A stretch of DNA of 64,000 nucleotides, from assembly GCA_001567355.1 (NCBI GenBank), contig JYNZ01000002.1, positions 71,477 to 135,476 of the forward strand. Direction: 5' to 3'. The first letter of the stretch is position 1, and every line of letters begins with the position of its first letter. The notes beneath the pieces were generated by a model. The model worked only from the letters and a program-made list of their open reading frames with translations. It made no database searches and was not told the DNA's origin. The stretch comes from a candidate division WS6 bacterium OLB20 (GTDB lineage Bacteria; Patescibacteriota; Dojkabacteria; B142; OLB20). Positions 2,185 through 35,236 of this stretch are shown here, one piece after another. The translations under genes and the position numbers were made by a program.

Positions 2185-3195
2185 GTGCTGCGGGTGCTGC
2201 ATTTACCCCGTTGGACCATCTTACCTGTTAGCATTCTCACTATGAGAGGCAAACAATTTGCTGGTCCGGCACTGGTAATGATTGCAGCTGCTCTGTGGGC
2301 GCTTGACGCTCTTATCAGGACGCAGCTTACTGCAATCATTCCCTCCGCCTGGATCGTTTTACTCGAGCATCTGGTCGGTTTTCTGCTGCTGATGCCGCTG
2401 TTGCTTAATAACAGAAAGCGGATCAGTACCATGACGAAGCGTGACTGGGTTGTCATGATTGTACTGAGCGCGGTCAGCAGTGTTGCAGGCACGCTGCTGT
2501 TTACAGAAGCACTGAGCAGAAGCTTTGCCGGTTATGACTTTGTGACGCCTGTGCTCCTTCAGAAGCTGCAGCCGCTGATCGTAGTCCTGCTTTCTTTTGT
2601 TGTCCTGCACGAACGCCCGGGTATCAGGTTTTATGCGCTTATCCCGGTAGCACTGATCGGCAGTTACATGATCAGTTTCGGGACAGATCCCGTAACGGTA
2701 GATCTCAAGCAGCAGACCGAGGTTGTACTGCTGGCTCTTGGAGCTGCAATAGCATGGGGGAGCGGCACAGTAATGAGTAAACATCTGCTTGTTAAACTTG
2801 ATTTTGCTGAAGCAACAGCGCTGCGGTTTTTGTTTGCAGTGCCCCTAAGTATTGTTGCTATCGCACTGACCGGTCAGCAGCTGGACACATCTGTTCTGAG
2901 TTTTGATGTCATAATCCGGTTTGTGGTGATTGCGTTCTCAACAGGCGCTGCAGCTATCCTTCTGTATTACCGCGGTCTCAAGCTGACGCGTGCGTCTGTT
3001 GCAACATTTGCAGAACTTACGTTTCCGGTTGTCTCTGTTCTGATTGCAATCACAGCACTTAATCCCTATGGTGCGCCGCAGCAGTTATCGCTGGCAAATC
3101 AATTTGGTATAGTACTGTTACTTATAGCCATCATTCTGATCAGCTTTGAAGCAGACAGACGAAAACTGGGTACAGGCGACGGTGCTCCACGGTGA
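2185..3195 (+). CDS. DMT/EamA-family membrane transporter
   Basis: About 10 predicted TM helices with a two-fold EamA-like hydrophobic pattern. The true start may be the ATG at 2242 (MRGKQFAG...). Confidence 0.65.
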   Translation: MLRVLHLPRWTILPVSILTMRGKQFAGPALVMIAAALWALDALIRTQLTAIIPSAWIVLLEHLVGFLLLMPLLLNNRKRISTMTKRDWVVMIVLSAVSSVAGTLLFTEALSRSFAGYDFVTPVLLQKLQPLIVVLLSFVVLHERPGIRFYALIPVALIGSYMISFGTDPVTVDLKQQTEVVLLALGAAIAWGSGTVMSKHLLVKLDFAEATALRFLFAVPLSIVAIALTGQQLDTSVLSFDVIIRFVVIAFSTGAAAILLYYRGLKLTRASVATFAELTFPVVSVLIAITALNPYGAPQQLSLANQFGIVLLLIAIILISFEADRRKLGTGDGAPR

Positions 3196-12690: not shown

Positions 12691-12778
<88 letters not shown>

Positions 12779-12902
12779 CACACCGGTACGAATCGTTATT
12801 ATACCCCAAAAACTCCCGACAGGCTACGCAGTTTGCCTCTGCGACAGGAATCCCGTTACACTGTAGCAGTGTCAGGTATTTTTATCCGTTATACTCAGAC
12901 CT

Positions 12903-26560: not shown

Positions 26561-27502
26561 ATGGAGCTGACTACTGAGATGCTGCGAAGCAATGGAAGGC
26601 TGACGCAGGAAACAATCACTGCACGGCAGGAATATGCCGGTATGGTAATTGCAGAAGGCCTGCGGGAAGGCCGCAACTATTCAGTCTACGGACTGATGGG
26701 CGGAGGCAAAACAGGTACTCTTGGTGTCGTTTGCCGTCTTATTCCTGATCTTGTCATGTTTAAACTCGCAGGTGCACAGCGGGGCAACGAGCAGGAAAAC
26801 TCCATCTGGCAGAGAAACGGTGCTCCGATAACCGGTGACGTCAGGCCAGTCAAATCAATCGCAGATGTTTACCAGCAGATCTGTTCAGGACTTGTCAGAC
26901 CGGGGACACCGATCAGTCTTAATGAGGCACAGTTTATGGCAGATTCGCCGGCTGATCTGATGCGCATGTATGAACTGGCTGCGAAAAACCGTAACGGAGT
27001 GTTTGCCGATTGTCTTGTGTCATGGTTTGACGGTCAGCCGAATGAAAACACAGAAGCAATTGTACACAGGTCTGATGCAGCTTTTTTCATGGCAGGATGG
27101 GACAGCTTTACCGGAGAGCCGGCTGATTTCACCATCAGACTTGTAGGAATAAAAAACGGCAGTGTGATTGAGCAGCATTCAGAAGATACATACTACCGGG
27201 GTATGACTGCAGTGCAGCGGATGCGTCTCGCAAATGCAGTTGATGTCAGTGTTTTCGGCAGTGGTCTGCGTATGATTGATCCTGACGGGCACCAGATCGG
27301 TGAGTGTACCGGCATGCCCTCGCATCACGCAGACCCGAGATACGCAATAGGAGCAAGCAGATACCGAACAGCAACTCTTGAGAATTATCACAGAATATAT
27401 GAAGCAGCTGAGATCAGCCTGCCCGCCGACAGTATCGTTCCGGCAAGTAAACTGTTCCCCCTGGCAAACCGCGTTGACTGGAATTCTGTCACTATTGATT
27501 GA
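26561..27502 (+). CDS. hypothetical protein with a P-loop-like GLMGGGKTG motif
   Basis: 313 aa. Its stop overlaps the start of the giant surface protein, so the two are probably translationally coupled. Confidence 0.4.
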   Translation: MELTTEMLRSNGRLTQETITARQEYAGMVIAEGLREGRNYSVYGLMGGGKTGTLGVVCRLIPDLVMFKLAGAQRGNEQENSIWQRNGAPITGDVRPVKSIADVYQQICSGLVRPGTPISLNEAQFMADSPADLMRMYELAAKNRNGVFADCLVSWFDGQPNENTEAIVHRSDAAFFMAGWDSFTGEPADFTIRLVGIKNGSVIEQHSEDTYYRGMTAVQRMRLANAVDVSVFGSGLRMIDPDGHQIGECTGMPSHHADPRYAIGASRYRTATLENYHRIYEAAEISLPADSIVPASKLFPLANRVDWNSVTID

Positions 27503-30500
27503 CAGGCGTTCCAGGTTTTTCTAGCATAAGGGTATCTGTTACCCGCTCTCTATTGACACTTCTGAAGAACTCTCTGCCCGTGCTGCTGATCCTCGGACTT
27601 GCAGCAATTGCGGTATTTGTTGTGCTTACTCTGGGCGAGAATATAGCCCCTGACGAATCTTCGGCCACGTTTGAATACGGAATTGTCGTCGAGCAGACCG
27701 GAGCCGGAACCGCTGACTACAAGGCAGGCGATACAGTCGAGCTCGAGATCAAGGCGCTTGTACCTCCAAATGATCCGGATGCCCCGGGTTCTGCTGAGAC
27801 TGTGATTACGTTTGACACAGGAGTCCTCGAATTTGAGGATATTACTGCTGCAGATGGAGTTCTTATGATTGAAAACACAGACACGCAGCCCGGAACAGTT
27901 GCAGCTGATTTTGTTAAGCAGGGTGAAGGCAGTTTTATCGGCGACGAAAACAATCGGGTTGTACTTGCCGTTCTCCGTTTTACGGTTCGTTCTGATCAAA
28001 ATCCTGCAGTTGCCGTTTCGGTGTCAGCTGAGTCCCGTATCGGCAATGAACCGATCTCTACTGCAAATGCTGCTATCGAGTTCCCGGTAATACTTTCGGG
28101 TACAGTGCCCGTCTGCGGCAATAACCAGTGCGACACCGGTGAAGGGTTTACCTGCCCCAGAGACTGTGCTCCATCGCCGACACCAAGCCAGACGGTAGTG
28201 GTAACCGCAACACCTGTCCAGTCAGCAGCATGTCAGAAGGCAGGAATCAATTTTGCGACTATAGTTCCCATTGGTGAGAACTACATTAACAAGGCGCGTA
28301 ATCTTAAACTGGGATACACCCTGGAACTTGCAATGAATCCGGGTCAGCTGGATGTAACAGAGGCATCTTTTCGCAGGACCATGCAGTCAGGCATGACGCC
28401 GATTCTCAGAGTCTGCTATCCCGGTGCTGAGTGTGGATTCAGCAATGTATCAACGTATGTGCAGTTTATTAATGCGCTTGCTGACAGGCTGGCAGGTGAT
28501 GGCACATTCTTCGTAATTGCTGGTCCAAACGAGCCGCTCGGTGAAAACTGGCTTGGTAATACAGAAGGTGATCCTGTCTCGACAGCTGCTGTGATTACTC
28601 CCTACATGAATGCGGTTATCAGCGGTGTAAATAAAGACAATGTAAAACTTCTTTCACCTGCTTTTAATATCACTCACCCTGAGTTTGAAAACCTGGTTGC
28701 GGCGATGACGCAAAGAGGTGCCCGTTTCTCCGAACTGGACGGGATAGCCGGTAACGGATACAACCTTGAAGGTTACAGCCTGGGAGGAACCATAACAGAA
28801 CTGATTGGCAGGGTGCGAAACACTTCACTCGGGCAGTACGATTTTTATCTGACCGAGACAGGTACATACGATTCTGAAAAAAACCCGCTCTGGACAGGGG
28901 TAAAATTACCTCATGAGCAGGCTAAGCAGAAATTCGCCCAGGAGATCACCAAGCTGAAGGCTGATGCAAAGATTAAGGCATTTCTCTTTTTTGACTCGTT
29001 TGCAAGCAATCCCGATCCGAACTTTGTCTACAACTTCTTCTCTGATGAAGAAATCAAGGCAATGATCGGTTCAGACTGCTACGGGGGTGCGCCGACTACG
29101 ACTGTGACACCATCGCTGACAGTCACACCGAGTCAGACAGCAACCGCCACTCCGTCCATGTCAGTAACCCCGACACCTGTCTGTCAGTATTTCAGTACAC
29201 AGGCGCGTGTGCAAAAGGATAGTGCTGATCCCTGGAAGCAGAATACACTCATCCAGTGCGGTCAGACATTTAATGTGGGATCGTTCCACAACGGTACTGA
29301 TCAGTTTGCCGCGGATACCATTCTTACCGTCTCCGATCCTTCGGGAGCGCTGAAACTCTATAGCAATGGTGATTCCGTACCCACTCAGCTGGAGGGCCGC
29401 TACACGTTGCGTGTCACAACCCGGGGTCAAAGCGGCGCTGCCTGTTTTGCATCTGCGTATGTGGAATGTTCAAATCAGCCTGTTGTCACTCAGTGCACAT
29501 ATCAGAATACACAGGCCCGGGTTCATAAGGATGTCACACAGGACTGGGTTCCATCAATGAAGCTCGCGTGTGGTGAGACATTTGAGGTAGGGAGCTTTCA
29601 TAATGGCACAGGGCAGTTCGCGCAGGATACACTGATAACCGTGCGCACACCTGATGGAACAACTGCAAACTATAAAAATGGTGACAAGGTTACAACAGAT
29701 ACTGCAGGTCGTTACGATGTGATCGTAACCACAGAAGGCCAGACCGGTCCTTCGTGCACTGATTCAGCATATGCGGTCTGTACCCCTGAAAATGTGATCT
29801 GTGCAGATCCCCTGCCATGTCCGACAGGCACAGTCCTGAGACCCGGAACAATGGATCCAAACGGCTGTCAGCAGTATTATTGTGCACCTCAGCCTACTCC
29901 AACTCCATCTCAGCGACCCTGTCCAACAATGCCTGTCTGCAAACCCGGAGAGATTCTTCTGCATGGCGATCCCGTGCCGGGGTCAGGTCTCTGCCCTGCG
30001 TATTTCTGCGTCCCGGCAAGTAATACCCTGACCTGCGAATCAGGATCATTTACCGAAGACTTCTCTGATCCGCTGCTGGATACACAGCTGTTCCGTGAGG
30101 AGGGTAAAGGCAGGACGACGCTTGAGGATGGAGTGGCAATCATCTCGCTTGATGTTGATACGTTTACAAACCATGTAACACACCTGCGCAAGACACTGAG
30201 CGGAAACTTCAGCCTCAGTGTCGAAGTGCTGGATGTCAACACAAACCAGCAGAATGGCGCAACAGGTGAACTGGGAATTCAGAGCCCTGCAGGACATGCC
30301 CATATCAACGTCGAAAACCGCGGTGGAGGAACAAAAATTATCGAGACAAATGTTCGTGTTGGAGATTCATGGCTGGGTTCCAGGACAGTCGATGTCAGCA
30401 GTGTCACAGAAAAGATAACGCTTACCATCGAACGGGTAAACAGCACATTGACGATGTACTACAGGATCGGTGAAGGACAACGGATGACTCTGGCACGATA

Positions 30501-31563
30501 CAGCGGATACTATTTCGGTGATGTGCAGGCACAGCTGTATTCATTTTCTAAAGGAACATTCCCCCCAAGTCAGGCTGTGTTTGACAATCTTACATTTGCC
30601 TGTCCTTCGGGTCAGAACACAACCCCTACGCTGACGCCGCGTCCAACAATAGTGGTATGTTCGCAGGATGTAATGCAATGCCCCGATGGCACCTATGTCT
30701 CGCGTGAAGCACGCCTCAACTGTGCATTTAAACCGTGTAATCCTGTACCTGCATATTGTGGTAATAAGATCTGTGAGGCAGGCGAAGCAGGGCCAGGTGG
30801 CAGCTGTCCGACTGACTGCCAGTCAGTGCGACCGACCCCAACCCCGACACCATCAGTGATTGTTACGGGCGTATCATCTCCTGTGCCTTCACAAAGTACT
30901 GCACCGACACCAACGATTACCGGTGACCCGATATGTACCGGTTACTCGTATACTGACTGGTCAGAATGCATTGACGGTAAGCGGGTTCGAACAGTGATCT
31001 CAACAGTGCCGGCTTCATGTACTGGTGGTCCCGCACCCGTCACAAAGCAGATATGCGGTGATGGTGATCTGGTCTGTCCGCAGGATATGAAAACCTGTCC
31101 TGACGGAAGTCTCGTGGCGCGAGACCCTAATAACGGCTGTCAGTTCCAGGCCTGCCCTGGTGAAAAAGCCGATTGCGTCGAAGTGCCTGACTGTGCGAAT
31201 CCAGCAGAGCCGGGTGCACCTGTCTGTCAGATTGATGGGTCAGTGAACTGGTGCCCTGGCGAATGTGTTCCCGTTCCATCGTGCGCATATGATGATAATC
31301 CATGTGCATACGCGCAGCCCGGTGTTATCTACTGCGAAAAAGTCGATGACAATGAGACTCCGGCAGGCAATGCGTGCGCGGCCGACTACGACCGGAACGG
31401 TACAGTGACTGCCCGTGACTTCGGTGTATTTGCACTCAACTACAAAAAAGACAGCATCGACTGCTCCCTTGATATCACCGGTGATGACTGCCGGCTTGAT
31501 ATCAACGATTTCCGTTTATTAGGACTTGTCTATGAAAAGGAATTATATTGTCCCGTTCCTTAG
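27499..31563 (+). CDS. giant (1,354 aa) cell-surface protein: N-terminal TM/signal, cohesin-like beta-sandwich, clan GH-A-like glycosidase TIM barrel (AGPNEP...LTETG), two tandem ~100-aa domains, Cys-rich mini-repeats, ConA-like region, C-terminal dockerin-like Ca-binding repeats
   Basis: C-terminal DYDRNGTVTARDFGVFALNY / DITGDDCRLDINDFRLL fits the dockerin pattern DxNxDGxVNxxD. PT/TPS linkers are present. Tandem repeat CQYFSTQARVQKD...AYVEC is followed by CTYQNTQARVHKD...AYAVC. The only start is a TTG at 27499. Confidence 0.6.
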   Translation: MTGVPGFSSIRVSVTRSLLTLLKNSLPVLLILGLAAIAVFVVLTLGENIAPDESSATFEYGIVVEQTGAGTADYKAGDTVELEIKALVPPNDPDAPGSAETVITFDTGVLEFEDITAADGVLMIENTDTQPGTVAADFVKQGEGSFIGDENNRVVLAVLRFTVRSDQNPAVAVSVSAESRIGNEPISTANAAIEFPVILSGTVPVCGNNQCDTGEGFTCPRDCAPSPTPSQTVVVTATPVQSAACQKAGINFATIVPIGENYINKARNLKLGYTLELAMNPGQLDVTEASFRRTMQSGMTPILRVCYPGAECGFSNVSTYVQFINALADRLAGDGTFFVIAGPNEPLGENWLGNTEGDPVSTAAVITPYMNAVISGVNKDNVKLLSPAFNITHPEFENLVAAMTQRGARFSELDGIAGNGYNLEGYSLGGTITELIGRVRNTSLGQYDFYLTETGTYDSEKNPLWTGVKLPHEQAKQKFAQEITKLKADAKIKAFLFFDSFASNPDPNFVYNFFSDEEIKAMIGSDCYGGAPTTTVTPSLTVTPSQTATATPSMSVTPTPVCQYFSTQARVQKDSADPWKQNTLIQCGQTFNVGSFHNGTDQFAADTILTVSDPSGALKLYSNGDSVPTQLEGRYTLRVTTRGQSGAACFASAYVECSNQPVVTQCTYQNTQARVHKDVTQDWVPSMKLACGETFEVGSFHNGTGQFAQDTLITVRTPDGTTANYKNGDKVTTDTAGRYDVIVTTEGQTGPSCTDSAYAVCTPENVICADPLPCPTGTVLRPGTMDPNGCQQYYCAPQPTPTPSQRPCPTMPVCKPGEILLHGDPVPGSGLCPAYFCVPASNTLTCESGSFTEDFSDPLLDTQLFREEGKGRTTLEDGVAIISLDVDTFTNHVTHLRKTLSGNFSLSVEVLDVNTNQQNGATGELGIQSPAGHAHINVENRGGGTKIIETNVRVGDSWLGSRTVDVSSVTEKITLTIERVNSTLTMYYRIGEGQRMTLARYSGYYFGDVQAQLYSFSKGTFPPSQAVFDNLTFACPSGQNTTPTLTPRPTIVVCSQDVMQCPDGTYVSREARLNCAFKPCNPVPAYCGNKICEAGEAGPGGSCPTDCQSVRPTPTPTPSVIVTGVSSPVPSQSTAPTPTITGDPICTGYSYTDWSECIDGKRVRTVISTVPASCTGGPAPVTKQICGDGDLVCPQDMKTCPDGSLVARDPNNGCQFQACPGEKADCVEVPDCANPAEPGAPVCQIDGSVNWCPGECVPVPSCAYDDNPCAYAQPGVIYCEKVDDNETPAGNACAADYDRNGTVTARDFGVFALNYKKDSIDCSLDITGDDCRLDINDFRLLGLVYEKELYCPVP

Positions 31564-32158
31564 TGCGCTGCTTGTTCTGCTGCCCGTTTACCCGGTCAGT
31601 GCACAGGAGGCTCCGCTGGTATTCACAGCGGATGCTGTAACCCTGGATGTGGGAGAGGAGATTGAAGTCCCGGTTAGCGTTCCTGCTGATCTCGACACCA
31701 ATGTGATTGAACTGGTGTTTGACTATGATGAAGAGAACGTTCTGATCGCCACTCTGCGTGAAGGACCCGGCACACTGGCAATCGATAAGGTGCTATCAGG
31801 AGGCAGGGCAGAAGTGACGGTTGCTAAAACCGGCAGCAATTTTGCAGCTGGTGATACAGTTGCAACGTTGCGTATCAGGCTTATCGGTCCTGCTGGATCA
31901 CAGGTCAGGTTTGCTGACGGTACAGCAGTAGCAGAGCAGTCTGTAGATGTTTCGTCCATGCAGGCACTCACTGTCACATTTGCGCATGAAGACAAGCTCG
32001 ATGACACTTCCGCAGAGGAAGACAGGCAGGCTGACCTCTTTGACCGGCTGCGCAGGCTTGACCCGGTCCTTCAGGTAGTCATCGGTGCTGCAGTTGTTGC
32101 CGGCCTGTTCTTTATTCTCATACTGGCACTGTTTATCCTGCGTAAACGCAACGAATAA
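31526..32158 (+). CDS. membrane-anchored cohesin-like domain protein (signal peptide, ~140-aa beta-sandwich, C-terminal TM plus RKRNE)
   Basis: Signal peptide MKRNYIVPFLSALLVLLPVYPVSAQEA, then LVFTADAVTLDVGEEIEVPVSV...IELVFDYDEENV...ATLRIRLIG, then C-terminal VVIGAAVVAGLFFILILALFILRKRNE. Confidence 0.5.
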   Translation: MSMKRNYIVPFLSALLVLLPVYPVSAQEAPLVFTADAVTLDVGEEIEVPVSVPADLDTNVIELVFDYDEENVLIATLREGPGTLAIDKVLSGGRAEVTVAKTGSNFAAGDTVATLRIRLIGPAGSQVRFADGTAVAEQSVDVSSMQALTVTFAHEDKLDDTSAEEDRQADLFDRLRRLDPVLQVVIGAAVVAGLFFILILALFILRKRNE

Positions 32159-32724
32159 TGCAGTACAGGTGCGAATGGGCACAGTCCGATCCACTGCTTG
32201 TGCAGTATCATGACACAGAGTGGGGAGTGCCGGAACATGACGATACGAGACAGTTTGAATTTCTCTCACTGGAAATCATGCAGGCGGGTTTGAGCTGGCT
32301 GACTGTTCTTCGCAAACGCGAAGGCTTTCGTCGGGTCTTTTACGGTTTTGATGTACCGCGTGTTGCCGCGATGACAGATCATGATGTTGAACGGCTGTTG
32401 CAGGATGAGGGTATTATCAGAAACAGAATGAAGATCGAGGCAATCATCAATAACGCAAGAGCAGTTTTGCATATGCAAAAGCAGCAGACCCTTGCAGAAT
32501 TTTTCTGGAGTTATGTAAACGGTGTCCCGCTGGACAGCAGAATCGCAATGGATGAGGACGTTCCTGCTTCCACACCGCTGTCGCACAGGATCAGTAAGGA
32601 TCTCAAGGCACATAAGTTCCGTTTTACCGGTCCAACAATCATATATGCCCATATGCAGGCAACCGGTATCGTAAATGACCACGAAAAGCGCTGCTTCCGC
32701 CATGACCAGGTCCATCCCCACTAG
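32158..32724 (+). CDS. tag: DNA-3-methyladenine glycosylase I
   Basis: WAQSDPLLVQYHDTEWGVP (Tag signature YHDxEWG). Confidence 0.8.
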   Translation: MQYRCEWAQSDPLLVQYHDTEWGVPEHDDTRQFEFLSLEIMQAGLSWLTVLRKREGFRRVFYGFDVPRVAAMTDHDVERLLQDEGIIRNRMKIEAIINNARAVLHMQKQQTLAEFFWSYVNGVPLDSRIAMDEDVPASTPLSHRISKDLKAHKFRFTGPTIIYAHMQATGIVNDHEKRCFRHDQVHPH

Positions 32725-32771
32725 AAGAGCTGCACTGCATCTGCTAGGATATAGCTGTACCCGTACTACTG

Positions 32772-33281
32772 ATGAAGACAATTGACCGTATTTTTGTTGT
32801 GATGCTGATTGTTCTGCCGTTTGCGGTTGCGCTTGTGCTTGTCTTTCAGCTTCTGCGCAATCCCAATATTGCTCCTGACGACACTGATGCGCTTCCGACT
32901 CCGACCTTTGCCGTCGGTCCTGTTACAGTCAGTCCCACTGCAACTCCAACGTTTGACTATGAGCCTGTTACCCCAACTGTAACTGCAACATATGCGATTC
33001 CAGAGGATACTGATCCTGCCACACCGACAACCCGGCCGCAGCATACGGTGACAGTAACAGCCACCCCAGTAGCTACAACCGCCGGCAGAAGCCCCACACC
33101 AACATCAGTCTCCACAGCCACTCCTGCACCTACTGCTTCAGCAACTCTCATTGCTGAGCTTCCTGATACGCAGAGCAGTGACCAGACGCTACTGCAGGTG
33201 CTTGCGGTCAGCCTTACGGTAGCATGTGTTGCCGGTGGACTGCTTACCGCCGGAAAAATTCTTCGCGGCAGGACACTATGA
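32772..33281 (+). CDS. Thr/Pro-rich membrane protein, hypothetical
   Basis: N-terminal and C-terminal TM segments with a T/P-rich low-complexity core. Confidence 0.4.
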   Translation: MKTIDRIFVVMLIVLPFAVALVLVFQLLRNPNIAPDDTDALPTPTFAVGPVTVSPTATPTFDYEPVTPTVTATYAIPEDTDPATPTTRPQHTVTVTATPVATTAGRSPTPTSVSTATPAPTASATLIAELPDTQSSDQTLLQVLAVSLTVACVAGGLLTAGKILRGRTL

Positions 33282-33916
33282 GGATTGTGATTGCCGATCT
33301 CCATCTCACTGACAGATATGACTCCCGGCTCGGGGAGTTTCTTTCTGGTCTTACTGCTGAAGCTGATGAACTGATAATCAACGGTGATCTCTGGGACGAG
33401 GATATAACGGAATTTGCGGGATTTGAACGTGCCTGGCGGCCACTGCTGCAGAAGTGGGCTGCTCTCAGAACAGTGTATCTTCCAGGCAATCACGATACTG
33501 ATCCGCTGCTTGCAGAAAAGGCATGGTTTGCTGCAGAAGTCTTGCCTGTCTACAGCTTTACAGACGGCAGCGTCAGGTTTCATATTGAGCACGGGCATGT
33601 CTTTGACACCGAGGGTCTTGTCAGAAGACTGGTACCGCAGCCGCTGCTTGGCCTGATAGCTCATGCCAACAGGGTAAGAACATGGCTGTGGTCGCGGCTG
33701 TTTCCGTTCACCCATTCATTCTCAGAAACAGAAACAGTGCAGCAGCATTCTGCACGCAAGCTGATAGATGCTGATGTTGTTATCTTTTCACACTCGCACA
33801 AACCACTTGCTGACAGAAGCTCCGGTCTTTATAACACAGGAGCCATTATGCACGGTCAGGCATCGTGGCTGGTCATAGACCAAGGCGCTGTAGCGTTGCG
33901 AAAAAGCACATATTAA
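33278..33916 (+). CDS. metallophosphoesterase (calcineurin-like)
   Basis: MRIVIADLHL...INGDLWD...LPGNHD...HIEHGH motifs. Confidence 0.65.
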   Translation: MRIVIADLHLTDRYDSRLGEFLSGLTAEADELIINGDLWDEDITEFAGFERAWRPLLQKWAALRTVYLPGNHDTDPLLAEKAWFAAEVLPVYSFTDGSVRFHIEHGHVFDTEGLVRRLVPQPLLGLIAHANRVRTWLWSRLFPFTHSFSETETVQQHSARKLIDADVVIFSHSHKPLADRSSGLYNTGAIMHGQASWLVIDQGAVALRKSTY

Positions 33917-33922
33917 GGTATT

Positions 33923-35236
33923 GTGGCTTCTATGGATACATATATGCGCCTGCTCGGGTCATTTATCGCCTTCAAAAGCGTTTCCACGGATCCGGCATAT
34001 AAGCAGGAGGTTACCGATACTGTTACATGGTTGCGCAAGGTTTTTGCCGAGGAAGGTGCTGCTGTTGAGGTTGTAGAAGGATATGACAATCCGATTCTGC
34101 TGGCCCGTTTTGATGTCGATCCTGATGCACCCCGTGCTCTCGTCTATGGTCACTACGATGTTCAGCCCGCAGACGAAGTGGATGGCTGGACGCATGATCC
34201 GTTTGTGATCAGCGATGCTGCTGAGCGTATTTACGGACGGGGTGTCGTAGATAACAAAGGACAGGTTCTTGTACATATTGCAACAGTGATTGATGCGCTG
34301 CATGCAGGTACTCTTGCTAAAAATGTCACATTCTTCCTGGAAGGTAATGAAGAGACCGGGTCACCACATCTTGCAGACTTTATCGAACACGAAAAAGAGA
34401 AGCTGTCTGCAGACTTTGCACTCGTGTCTGATGGTGAGGTCATTGGTGACACACCCGTTATCGAGACGGGATTTCGGGGAGGATTTAATGCGACATTGAA
34501 GCTGACGACCTCGTCTACGGATCTGCATTCGGGAATCTATGGTGGAGCAGTCCCCTCAGCGTCACATGAACTGACACTGTTGCTGGCAAAGCTGCTGGAC
34601 AAAGAATATACAGTGATGATCCCGGGATTCTATGATGCAGTGGATGAGATCTCTCCTGAGGAGAGTAAGGCGCTGGCATCGGTACCGTTTGACAGAGAGG
34701 AATACTACCGGATTTCCGGGGTTAAGGGATTAATGACCGACAACGTGTATACAGCAACAGGTCTCAAGCCGACAGTTCAGATTACGGGTATTGAAAGCGG
34801 CTACACAAAAGAAGGCTACAGAAACAGTATACCGGCAAATGCACGCGCAAAACTGAACTTCCGTCTCGTCAGATCACAGGATAGCAGTACGATAATCAAG
34901 CTGTTTCAGGACTGGCTGGGTGCAAATATTCCGCCCTATGTCACCTGGGTGCTTGATGTAAATGATCCGTATGCAGGCGTAAAACTTAACCCTGACGCAC
35001 CGTTTACCAGGGAGGCCGCATCGGTGCTGGAAAAGGTCTACGGAGTAAAGCCTGTATATAAATACTCAGGAGGAGGGCTGCCGATTGTCACATTTCTTAA
35101 AGAACATCTTGAGCTTGAGCCGGTGCTTGTCCCCCTTGGCAATGAAGACTGCAATATGCATGCTGTAGCCGAAAACTATTCAAAATCTCATCTGAAGAAG
35201 GCACTGGCCTTCAGCAGAGAATTCTTTACTCATTAG
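33923..35236 (+). CDS. M20-family metallopeptidase/dipeptidase
   Basis: YGHYDVQP...GRGVVDNKG...FFLEGNEETGS (M20 metal-binding and catalytic motifs). Confidence 0.75.
   Translation: MASMDTYMRLLGSFIAFKSVSTDPAYKQEVTDTVTWLRKVFAEEGAAVEVVEGYDNPILLARFDVDPDAPRALVYGHYDVQPADEVDGWTHDPFVISDAAERIYGRGVVDNKGQVLVHIATVIDALHAGTLAKNVTFFLEGNEETGSPHLADFIEHEKEKLSADFALVSDGEVIGDTPVIETGFRGGFNATLKLTTSSTDLHSGIYGGAVPSASHELTLLLAKLLDKEYTVMIPGFYDAVDEISPEESKALASVPFDREEYYRISGVKGLMTDNVYTATGLKPTVQITGIESGYTKEGYRNSIPANARAKLNFRLVRSQDSSTIIKLFQDWLGANIPPYVTWVLDVNDPYAGVKLNPDAPFTREAASVLEKVYGVKPVYKYSGGGLPIVTFLKEHLELEPVLVPLGNEDCNMHAVAENYSKSHLKKALAFSREFFTH

Follow-up and report, generated by a model that had tools for sequence, protein, structure and literature searches.

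The window analyzed here is a stretch of 64,000 nucleotides from the candidate division WS6 bacterium OLB20 (Dojkabacteria), which belongs to the candidate phyla radiation (CPR). Two open reading frames (ORFs) on its plus strand form the subject of this report, a giant gene at 27499..31563 (1,354 aa, read from TTG 27499) and a small gene at 31526..32158 (210 aa), and both were found at the positions given in the earlier note on this DNA; all features of the two proteins named below lie on the same strand. The giant ORF corresponds to GenBank KXK27314.1, a 'hypothetical protein' of 1,327 aa annotated from an internal GTG (27580), and a further alternative start, TTG 27553, agrees with the start of the orthologue in a complete Dojkabacteria genome (L010). 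The small ORF corresponds to KXK27315.1, annotated from its likely start ATG 31532 (208 aa), and is named 'Cohesin domain-containing protein' in UniRef/UniProt. The two genes overlap by 32 nt. The giant protein was found to combine an N-terminal cohesin domain, a clan GH-A-like glycoside hydrolase (GH) barrel and a dockerin-like C-terminal module, hereafter the tail, and the small protein to carry a single cohesin in front of a predicted membrane helix. The pair is read here, with a probability of about 0.6, as a cassette of two genes by which a CPR bacterium tethers an enzyme to its surface in cohesin-dockerin fashion.

The N-terminal domain of the giant protein and the 210-aa protein were both taken as cohesin domains, as the earlier note had proposed, because of Pfam scores, matches of a family profile to the Protein Data Bank (PDB), the score of one family member and a profile-profile comparison. 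The giant domain covers residues ~57-200 (27667..28098; Pfam match at residues 70-172), and when isolated it scored 26.3 bits against PF00963 (Pfam Cohesin, cut-off 24.1 bits), a borderline pass; a scan of the full-length protein gave 21.7 bits, and the orthologue at locus L008 gave 26.7 bits. The small protein is of type-I membrane build, with a signal peptide to 31603, a beta-rich cohesin segment at 31604-31987 and a C-terminal transmembrane (TM) helix at 32066-32140 followed by RKRNE, which the predicted topology places in the cytoplasm; each of these parts had been correctly picked out before. A word-index homology search with the small protein returned no relatives and a direct PDB sequence search nothing useful. 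An exhaustive HMMER search recovered four relatives of the same build (signal peptide, ~130-aa beta domain, C-terminal TM helix, basic tail), and two further members were reached through tail-bearing loci (L011 and L012), which scored 80.5 and 40.5 bits, respectively, against an earlier five-member version of the family profile (A1). With the resulting seven-member profile, the 12 best PDB matches were all cohesins, the first being the Clostridium perfringens NagJ cohesin (2jh2, E 0.0045, ~100 residues aligned). The L012 member itself scored 41.8 bits (E 1.5e-10) against Pfam Cohesin. Comparison of the small-protein family with the giant N-terminal domain in hhalign gave a probability of 97.2% (E 4e-11). 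BLASTP between the small protein and the same domain was not significant (E 0.23), so it is the profile-profile comparison that carries the relation of the two cohesins, which on this basis are taken as paralogues. When genome and metagenome contigs were scanned with the profile of the small-protein family, no matches were obtained. A sortase or PEP-CTERM anchor was considered for the small protein and rejected, with no LPXTG-like or PEP motif before the TM helix in any of the seven members.

The tail occupies residues 1291-1354 of the giant protein (~60 aa, 31369..31560). Read from the sequence, it consists of two loop-helix units joined by a linker and has no entering helix. Loop 1, DYDRNGTVTARD (residues 1296-1307, nt 31384-31419), is a canonical 12-residue calcium loop with D1, D3, N5, G6, V8, T9 and D12, and FGVFALNYKK comes next, within an amphipathic stretch that ends in N-Y-K. 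Loop 2, DITGDDCRLDIND (residues 1325-1337, nt 31471-31509), has 13 residues and a Cys at the expected Gly. Of the pair of 12-residue EF-hand-like dockerin loops that had been described here, the first therefore stands as canonical and the second does not. In an alignment of tails from six loci (the window; L010 together with L001-L006; L007; L008; L011; L012), 19 positions were invariant, four of them Cys. The strict EF-hand/dockerin loop pattern occurred once among the 33,560 residues of those six-frame ORFs of the window that reach 100 aa or more, and in 0 of 2,000 shuffled versions of the giant protein; because the whole tail is conserved in related genomes, it was not regarded as a chance match. 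The sole curated NCBIfam model to match the tail was dockerin_GC (NF041540, 'GC-type dockerin domain-anchored protein', cut-off 29 bits), which matched five of the six tails (best E 1.6e-6) over model positions 1-56 of 67. Among three related tails scanned beside the window's own, two matched Pfam Dockerin_1 (best E 0.015) and two matched Pfam EF-hand_1 (best E 7e-5). A direct PDB sequence search with the window tail gave nothing useful. The tail profile recovered dockerins (2jnk/2ozn, 2vn5, 2ccl, 1ohz, 2y3n, 5nrk) and calmodulin-type EF-hand proteins together, with two non-dockerin matches near E 0.04, and its alignment with the Clostridium cellulolyticum Cel5A dockerin (2vn5_B) covers most of the module.

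Gene order in related genomes independently supports the idea that the tail and the small protein are a pair: the two stay adjacent there while cargo and arrangement vary. The small cohesin gene adjoins a tail-bearing gene in 6 of 9 distinct tail-bearing loci, the same six that were aligned above, and the junctions are overlaps of 4 to 32 nt or a 15-nt gap. The L010 genome is syntenic with the window, carrying in turn a thymidine-kinase-like gene, a 1,159-aa orthologue of the giant protein (47% and 40% identity over two halves), the small cohesin gene (32-nt overlap), a Tag glycosylase, a metallophosphatase and an M20 peptidase; the orthologue has one Ig-like domain where the giant protein has two. 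At L008, whose flanks differ from those of the window, a 913-aa protein with an N-terminal cohesin, a Cys-rich region and the tail, and without the barrel, is followed by the small cohesin gene. At L011 a Cys-rich tail-bearing protein, cut at the contig end, is followed by the small cohesin gene. In the same metagenome-assembled genome (MAG), L012 has the reverse order: the small cohesin gene comes first and the gene for a 504-aa enzyme follows, with a 4-nt overlap. This enzyme has the tail alone in common with the giant protein (54% identity, E 1.6e-17) and no cohesin of its own; it had no Pfam, NCBIfam or PDB sequence match and may be another unclassified glycosidase. In the product of its ORF (L012 2233-3747), the N-terminus has a hydrophobic segment, and a 'WLLYDEPEF' stretch resembles a GH-A β4 motif.

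A scan of metagenome contigs placed the tail on right-handed beta-helix enzymes (L013 232-1827; L014 1672-3822, with CBM96 after the tail) and on a ~400-aa protein (L015 1231-2748; L016 2-1453). Its position on these hosts is C-terminal, internal or N-terminal, the last on the ~400-aa protein. Two other candidates from the scan, L018 and L019, were discarded as false positives: they are a polytopic membrane protein in which the string 'DYGVFALNYKKD' occurs by chance. Judged by these arrangements, the tail behaves as a mobile, shuffled module on secreted carbohydrate-active proteins, with unrelated enzymes as its hosts. A module of ~60-70 aa on varied secreted enzymes and a cohesin gene encoded in the same genome are dockerin-type traits, and both were found here. 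Related genomes contain the same pair with other enzymes, and it is therefore probably a minimal system for surface tethering, of a known type in an unusual form.

In the mechanism proposed, the large protein would be exported by way of its N-terminal hydrophobic segment (residues 26-46, 27574..27636, read from the sequence), which could be either a Sec signal peptide or a signal anchor; the L010 and L008 orthologues likewise begin with a basic stretch and then a hydrophobic segment. Outside the cytoplasm it would act as a retaining clan GH-A glycanase, with a β-linked polysaccharide as its presumed substrate, and a long stalk built from Ig-like, all-beta and Cys-rich modules would carry it. 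The C-terminal 60-aa module, with its canonical calcium loop-helix, degenerate loop-helix and two presumed disulfides, would serve as a divergent dockerin and bind the single cohesin of the translationally coupled small protein. The latter would be held in the cytoplasmic membrane by its C-terminal TM helix and basic stop-transfer tail, so that docking would keep the enzyme at the cell surface. A second tail, belonging either to a further copy of the giant protein or to some other tail-bearing enzyme, could dock on the N-terminal cohesin of the giant protein itself, and a small assembly of several enzymes would result.

Several results weigh against this reading. Loop 2 is without acidic ligands at positions 1 and 3. 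The window tail had no Pfam match of any kind, including Dockerin_1 (PF00404) even at E 10, and it scored 15.8 bits (E 0.014) against NF041540, about half of the 29-bit cut-off; since it falls below that value, it is not a dockerin member by the NCBI criterion. The earlier note had named the lack of a dockerin model hit as grounds for refutation, and for the window tail this is in part what was found: no match to the one model and a sub-threshold match to the other. Dockerin matches of the tail profile in the PDB all had E >0.1 and were mixed with ordinary EF-hand proteins, and in a 1,122-residue AlphaFold2 (AF2) model, which had no alignment depth at the tail, the tail reached a predicted local distance difference test score (pLDDT) of ~30. 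On the partner's side, the 210-aa protein's own sequence had no Pfam cohesin match, and its single-sequence AF2 model was poor (pLDDT 49, six beta strands where the jelly-roll sandwich of cohesins has nine). The short contigs of three tail-bearing locus kinds that are more distant (L013; L014 and L017; L015 and L016) showed no cohesin neighbor, and around one small cohesin gene (P0017, in L009) no gene with the tail lay within 10 kb. Since the window, L010 and L007 are orthologous and syntenic, the adjacency amounts to only about four independent configurations. Taken together, the tail lies below the curated dockerin thresholds, while in layout (read from the sequence), size and use it resembles dockerins well; it looks like a divergent dockerin.

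Part of this evidence would also suit a tail that acts as a calcium-binding, disulfide-stapled stabilizer or anchor for some non-cohesin target, for instance a glycan of the cell envelope or an S-layer; the neighbor would then be a generic surface protein or Ig-like protein whose co-expression has a different cause. The related tails score better on EF-hand than on dockerin models, EF-hand proteins are matched in the PDB as often as dockerins, and the three distant locus kinds just named have no cohesin beside them. Against this, a loop-helix pair of this size in a terminal position on secreted carbohydrate-active enzymes, shuffled among them, is typical of dockerins, the one NCBIfam model matched by the tail is a dockerin model, and the partner gene encodes the very fold that dockerins bind, in four gene arrangements. 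We consider such a non-cohesin target unlikely. That there is no functional relation at all, the adjacency being inherited synteny and the tail motif a chance resemblance, is very improbable. The window, L010, L001-L006 and L007 do have downstream genes in common (the Tag DNA glycosylase at least, and the metallophosphatase and M20 peptidase where contigs reach), and they therefore count as one lineage; L008, L011 and L012, however, keep the pair despite different flanks, different cargo or reversed order, and both the shuffling result and the 19 invariant tail positions speak against chance.

The tail might instead bind the giant protein's own cohesin, in cis as a closed loop or in trans as head-to-tail chains, leaving the small membrane cohesin to serve tail-bearing enzymes encoded elsewhere or to act as a competitor. 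Cohesin and tail do occur in one chain in the giant protein and in its L010 and L008 orthologues, the two cohesins are paralogues, and single proteins with both modules are described from non-cellulosomal organisms (PMC9012536). The 504-aa enzyme of L012 argues the other way, since it carries the tail without a cohesin of its own and still adjoins the small membrane cohesin; L011 is uninformative on this point because the partner is cut at the contig end. As an account of the locus, self-assembly is judged quite unlikely, and it could hold together with membrane tethering.

The enzyme that would be tethered contains a clan GH-A-like (β/α)8 barrel at residues C245-C527 (28231..29079), assigned from an AF2 model together with conserved motifs. 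The motifs from which the earlier note had read such a barrel, AGPNEP at residue 341 and LTETG at residue 451, fell where the fold leads one to expect them. AF2 run on a re-ordered homologue alignment gave an eight-fold β/α barrel with pLDDT 85-98, in which N344-E345 come directly after strand 4 and E453 lies in strand 7. E345 (nt 28531-28533, NEP after β4) is accordingly the predicted acid/base and E453 (nt 28855-28857, TETG in β7) the predicted nucleophile; the fold is modelled confidently and both placements fit clan GH-A. The two residues are invariant in 12 homologues, and the re-ordered alignment also has invariant R, A-G-P-N-E-P, L-S-P-A-F-N, G-N-x-Y and T-E-x-G. Foldseek neighbors of the barrel were all clan GH-A glycosidases (GH158, GH128, GH26, GH1, GH10, GH39, GH30, GH5). 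By sequence no known family could be assigned: the window domain had no Pfam match, PF11790 (GH128) matched weakly in 3 of the 12 homologues (best E 1e-4), PDB profile matches to GH128 and GH5 stood at E 0.5-1, and Pfam and PDB profile searches gave no significant match to GH128, GH158, GH26, GH5, GH53 or GH39. Identity to clan GH-A enzymes (GH53, GH39, GH26, GH5, GH1, GH128, GH158) was 7-16%, and no family stood out.

The proteins homologous to residues 245-527 are large and come from CPR bacteria, WWE3 being one example. They differ from the named GH-A families in that most are circularly permuted, and three orders were found in the barrel family (P0002-P0014): β1-β8 in the window and L010, β5-β8 then β1-β4 in most, and β8 then β1-β7 in P0012 and P0013. 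On sequence grounds the barrel is best treated as an unclassified GH-A-like family. In other CPR proteins it co-occurs with a lysozyme-like SLT_3 domain and a GDSL esterase domain, a weak hint that points to cell-envelope or exopolysaccharide substrates. The window barrel has a Cys at each end (C245 and C527).

Among known systems, the pairs of C. perfringens (NagJ GH84 cohesin with the NagH/mu-toxin dockerin; 2ozn, 2jh2, 2o4e, 2jnk) are similar in that their modules sit on secreted non-cellulase glycosidases. Their entries are also the best PDB matches of the small-protein family (E 0.0045) and, among dockerins, of the tail (2jnk/2ozn, E 0.16-0.36), which are weak values. The C. perfringens modules pass standard profiles and join soluble enzymes to one another, whereas the partner here would be a dedicated membrane protein with one cohesin, and the four invariant Cys and 13-residue loop 2 of the OLB20 tail set it apart from the C. 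perfringens dockerins. Anchoring scaffoldins with a single cohesin, such as Clostridium thermocellum SdbA and Ruminococcus flavefaciens ScaE, are fixed by SLH domains or sortase. Their role and the one proposed for OLB20 are alike, a surface-fixed single cohesin capturing a dockerin-bearing partner; the OLB20 anchor differs in being a plain C-terminal TM helix with a basic tail, with no multi-cohesin scaffoldin, and in belonging to a CPR bacterium and not to a cellulolytic Firmicute.

The earlier note had held that a cohesin-dockerin assembly would be noteworthy outside classical cellulolytic Firmicutes, which overstates the case: such modules are well documented there, in bacteria and archaea (Peer et al., 2009, as cited in PMC9012536). 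Non-cellulosomal cases, Archaeoglobus fulgidus and ANME archaea among them, have one or few cohesins, no large scaffoldins and varied cargo, as summarized in PMC9012536. The present system differs in its conserved adjacent gene for a TM-anchored cohesin and in its Cys-stapled tail. Cohesin and dockerin domains already figure in the counts of MAG surveys, one of which lists Dojkabacteria among potential carbohydrate degraders (PMC7038595). Limited full-text literature searches returned no description of the Cys-stapled tail, of a conserved CPR gene for a single-cohesin partner anchored by a TM helix, or of the GH-A family with its permuted orders, and a literature search found no paper on the NF041540 family.

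CPR bacteria have tiny genomes and are thought to be attached to or dependent on other cells, and how they retain degradative enzymes at the surface is poorly known. It is a tentative suggestion that they own a cohesin-dockerin lineage, comprising a disulfide-stapled dockerin with a single canonical calcium site, missed by standard profiles, and a dedicated TM-anchored single cohesin, usually adjacent and translationally coupled, for the display of interchangeable polysaccharide-degrading enzymes on ultra-small, probably host-attached cells. If so, beta-helix enzymes, a circularly permuting GH-A family that is unclassified, and others would be among the cargo, and the targets might be biofilm exopolysaccharide or the host cell envelope. 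A cassette of one enzyme and one anchor, with a membrane helix and swappable cargo, would be a simple, testable answer to the question of enzyme retention in CPR, and known dockerin sequence space would gain a Cys-stapled form overlooked by Pfam. For the annotation of carbohydrate-active enzymes in candidate phyla, a clan GH-A family that is unclassified and comes in three circular permutations is relevant. No new principle would be involved, as catalogues of cohesin and dockerin modules outside cellulosomes go back to 2009.

Between the barrel and the tail, the giant protein carries a tandem of two beta domains, each ~100 aa long and with conserved Cys (residues 560-663 and 664-764, 29176..29790); they are 53% identical (E 6e-36), which bears out their earlier description as a tandem pair, and were all-beta at moderate confidence in AF2. 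A further all-beta domain of ~190 aa (residues 846-1035, 30034..30603) is conserved in L010. It had been labelled 'ConA-like', which could not be verified: there was no Pfam match, no PDB match with a two-sequence profile, and an AF2 model of low confidence (pLDDT ~30, all-beta nonetheless). A Cys-rich spacer with Pro/Thr linkers follows (residues 1054-1279, 30658..31335) and is common to L008 and L011. The Pro/Thr linkers noticed earlier were located in three stretches of the giant protein (residues 224-244, 541-553 and 1125-1139).

The giant protein contains 54 Cys in total. A Cys motif, CGNxxCExGE...CxxDC, is present twice, as CGNNQCDTGEGFTCPRDC at residues 206-223 (28114..28167) and again at residues 1087-1107 (30757-30819), and a thrombospondin-type-1-like stretch, CTGYSYTDWSECIDGKRVR, lies at about residue 1146 (nt ~30934-31020); the motif and this stretch are seen again in the proteins of L008, L010 and L011.

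The region as first delimited began at 26561 and so took in the unrelated ORF 26561..27502, which was rejected as a member of the system: it encodes a thymidine-kinase-like P-loop protein, and its L010 orthologue scored 20.3 bits against PF00265 (cut-off 20.6). It is a conserved upstream neighbor and overlaps the first possible start of the giant ORF by 4 nt. Downstream, 32158-35236 is syntenic with L001 and L010 and encodes a 3-methyladenine glycosylase of the Tag type, whose L001 orthologue has PF03352, together with a metallophosphatase and an M20 peptidase; within this stretch, 32772-33281 encodes a Pro/Thr-rich protein with hydrophobic segments at its N- and C-terminus. Elsewhere in the window, an FMN riboswitch (RF00050, 80.6 bits) was located at 2010-2140, upstream of the ORF at 2185-3195, and a tRNA gene on the minus strand at 12695-12779.

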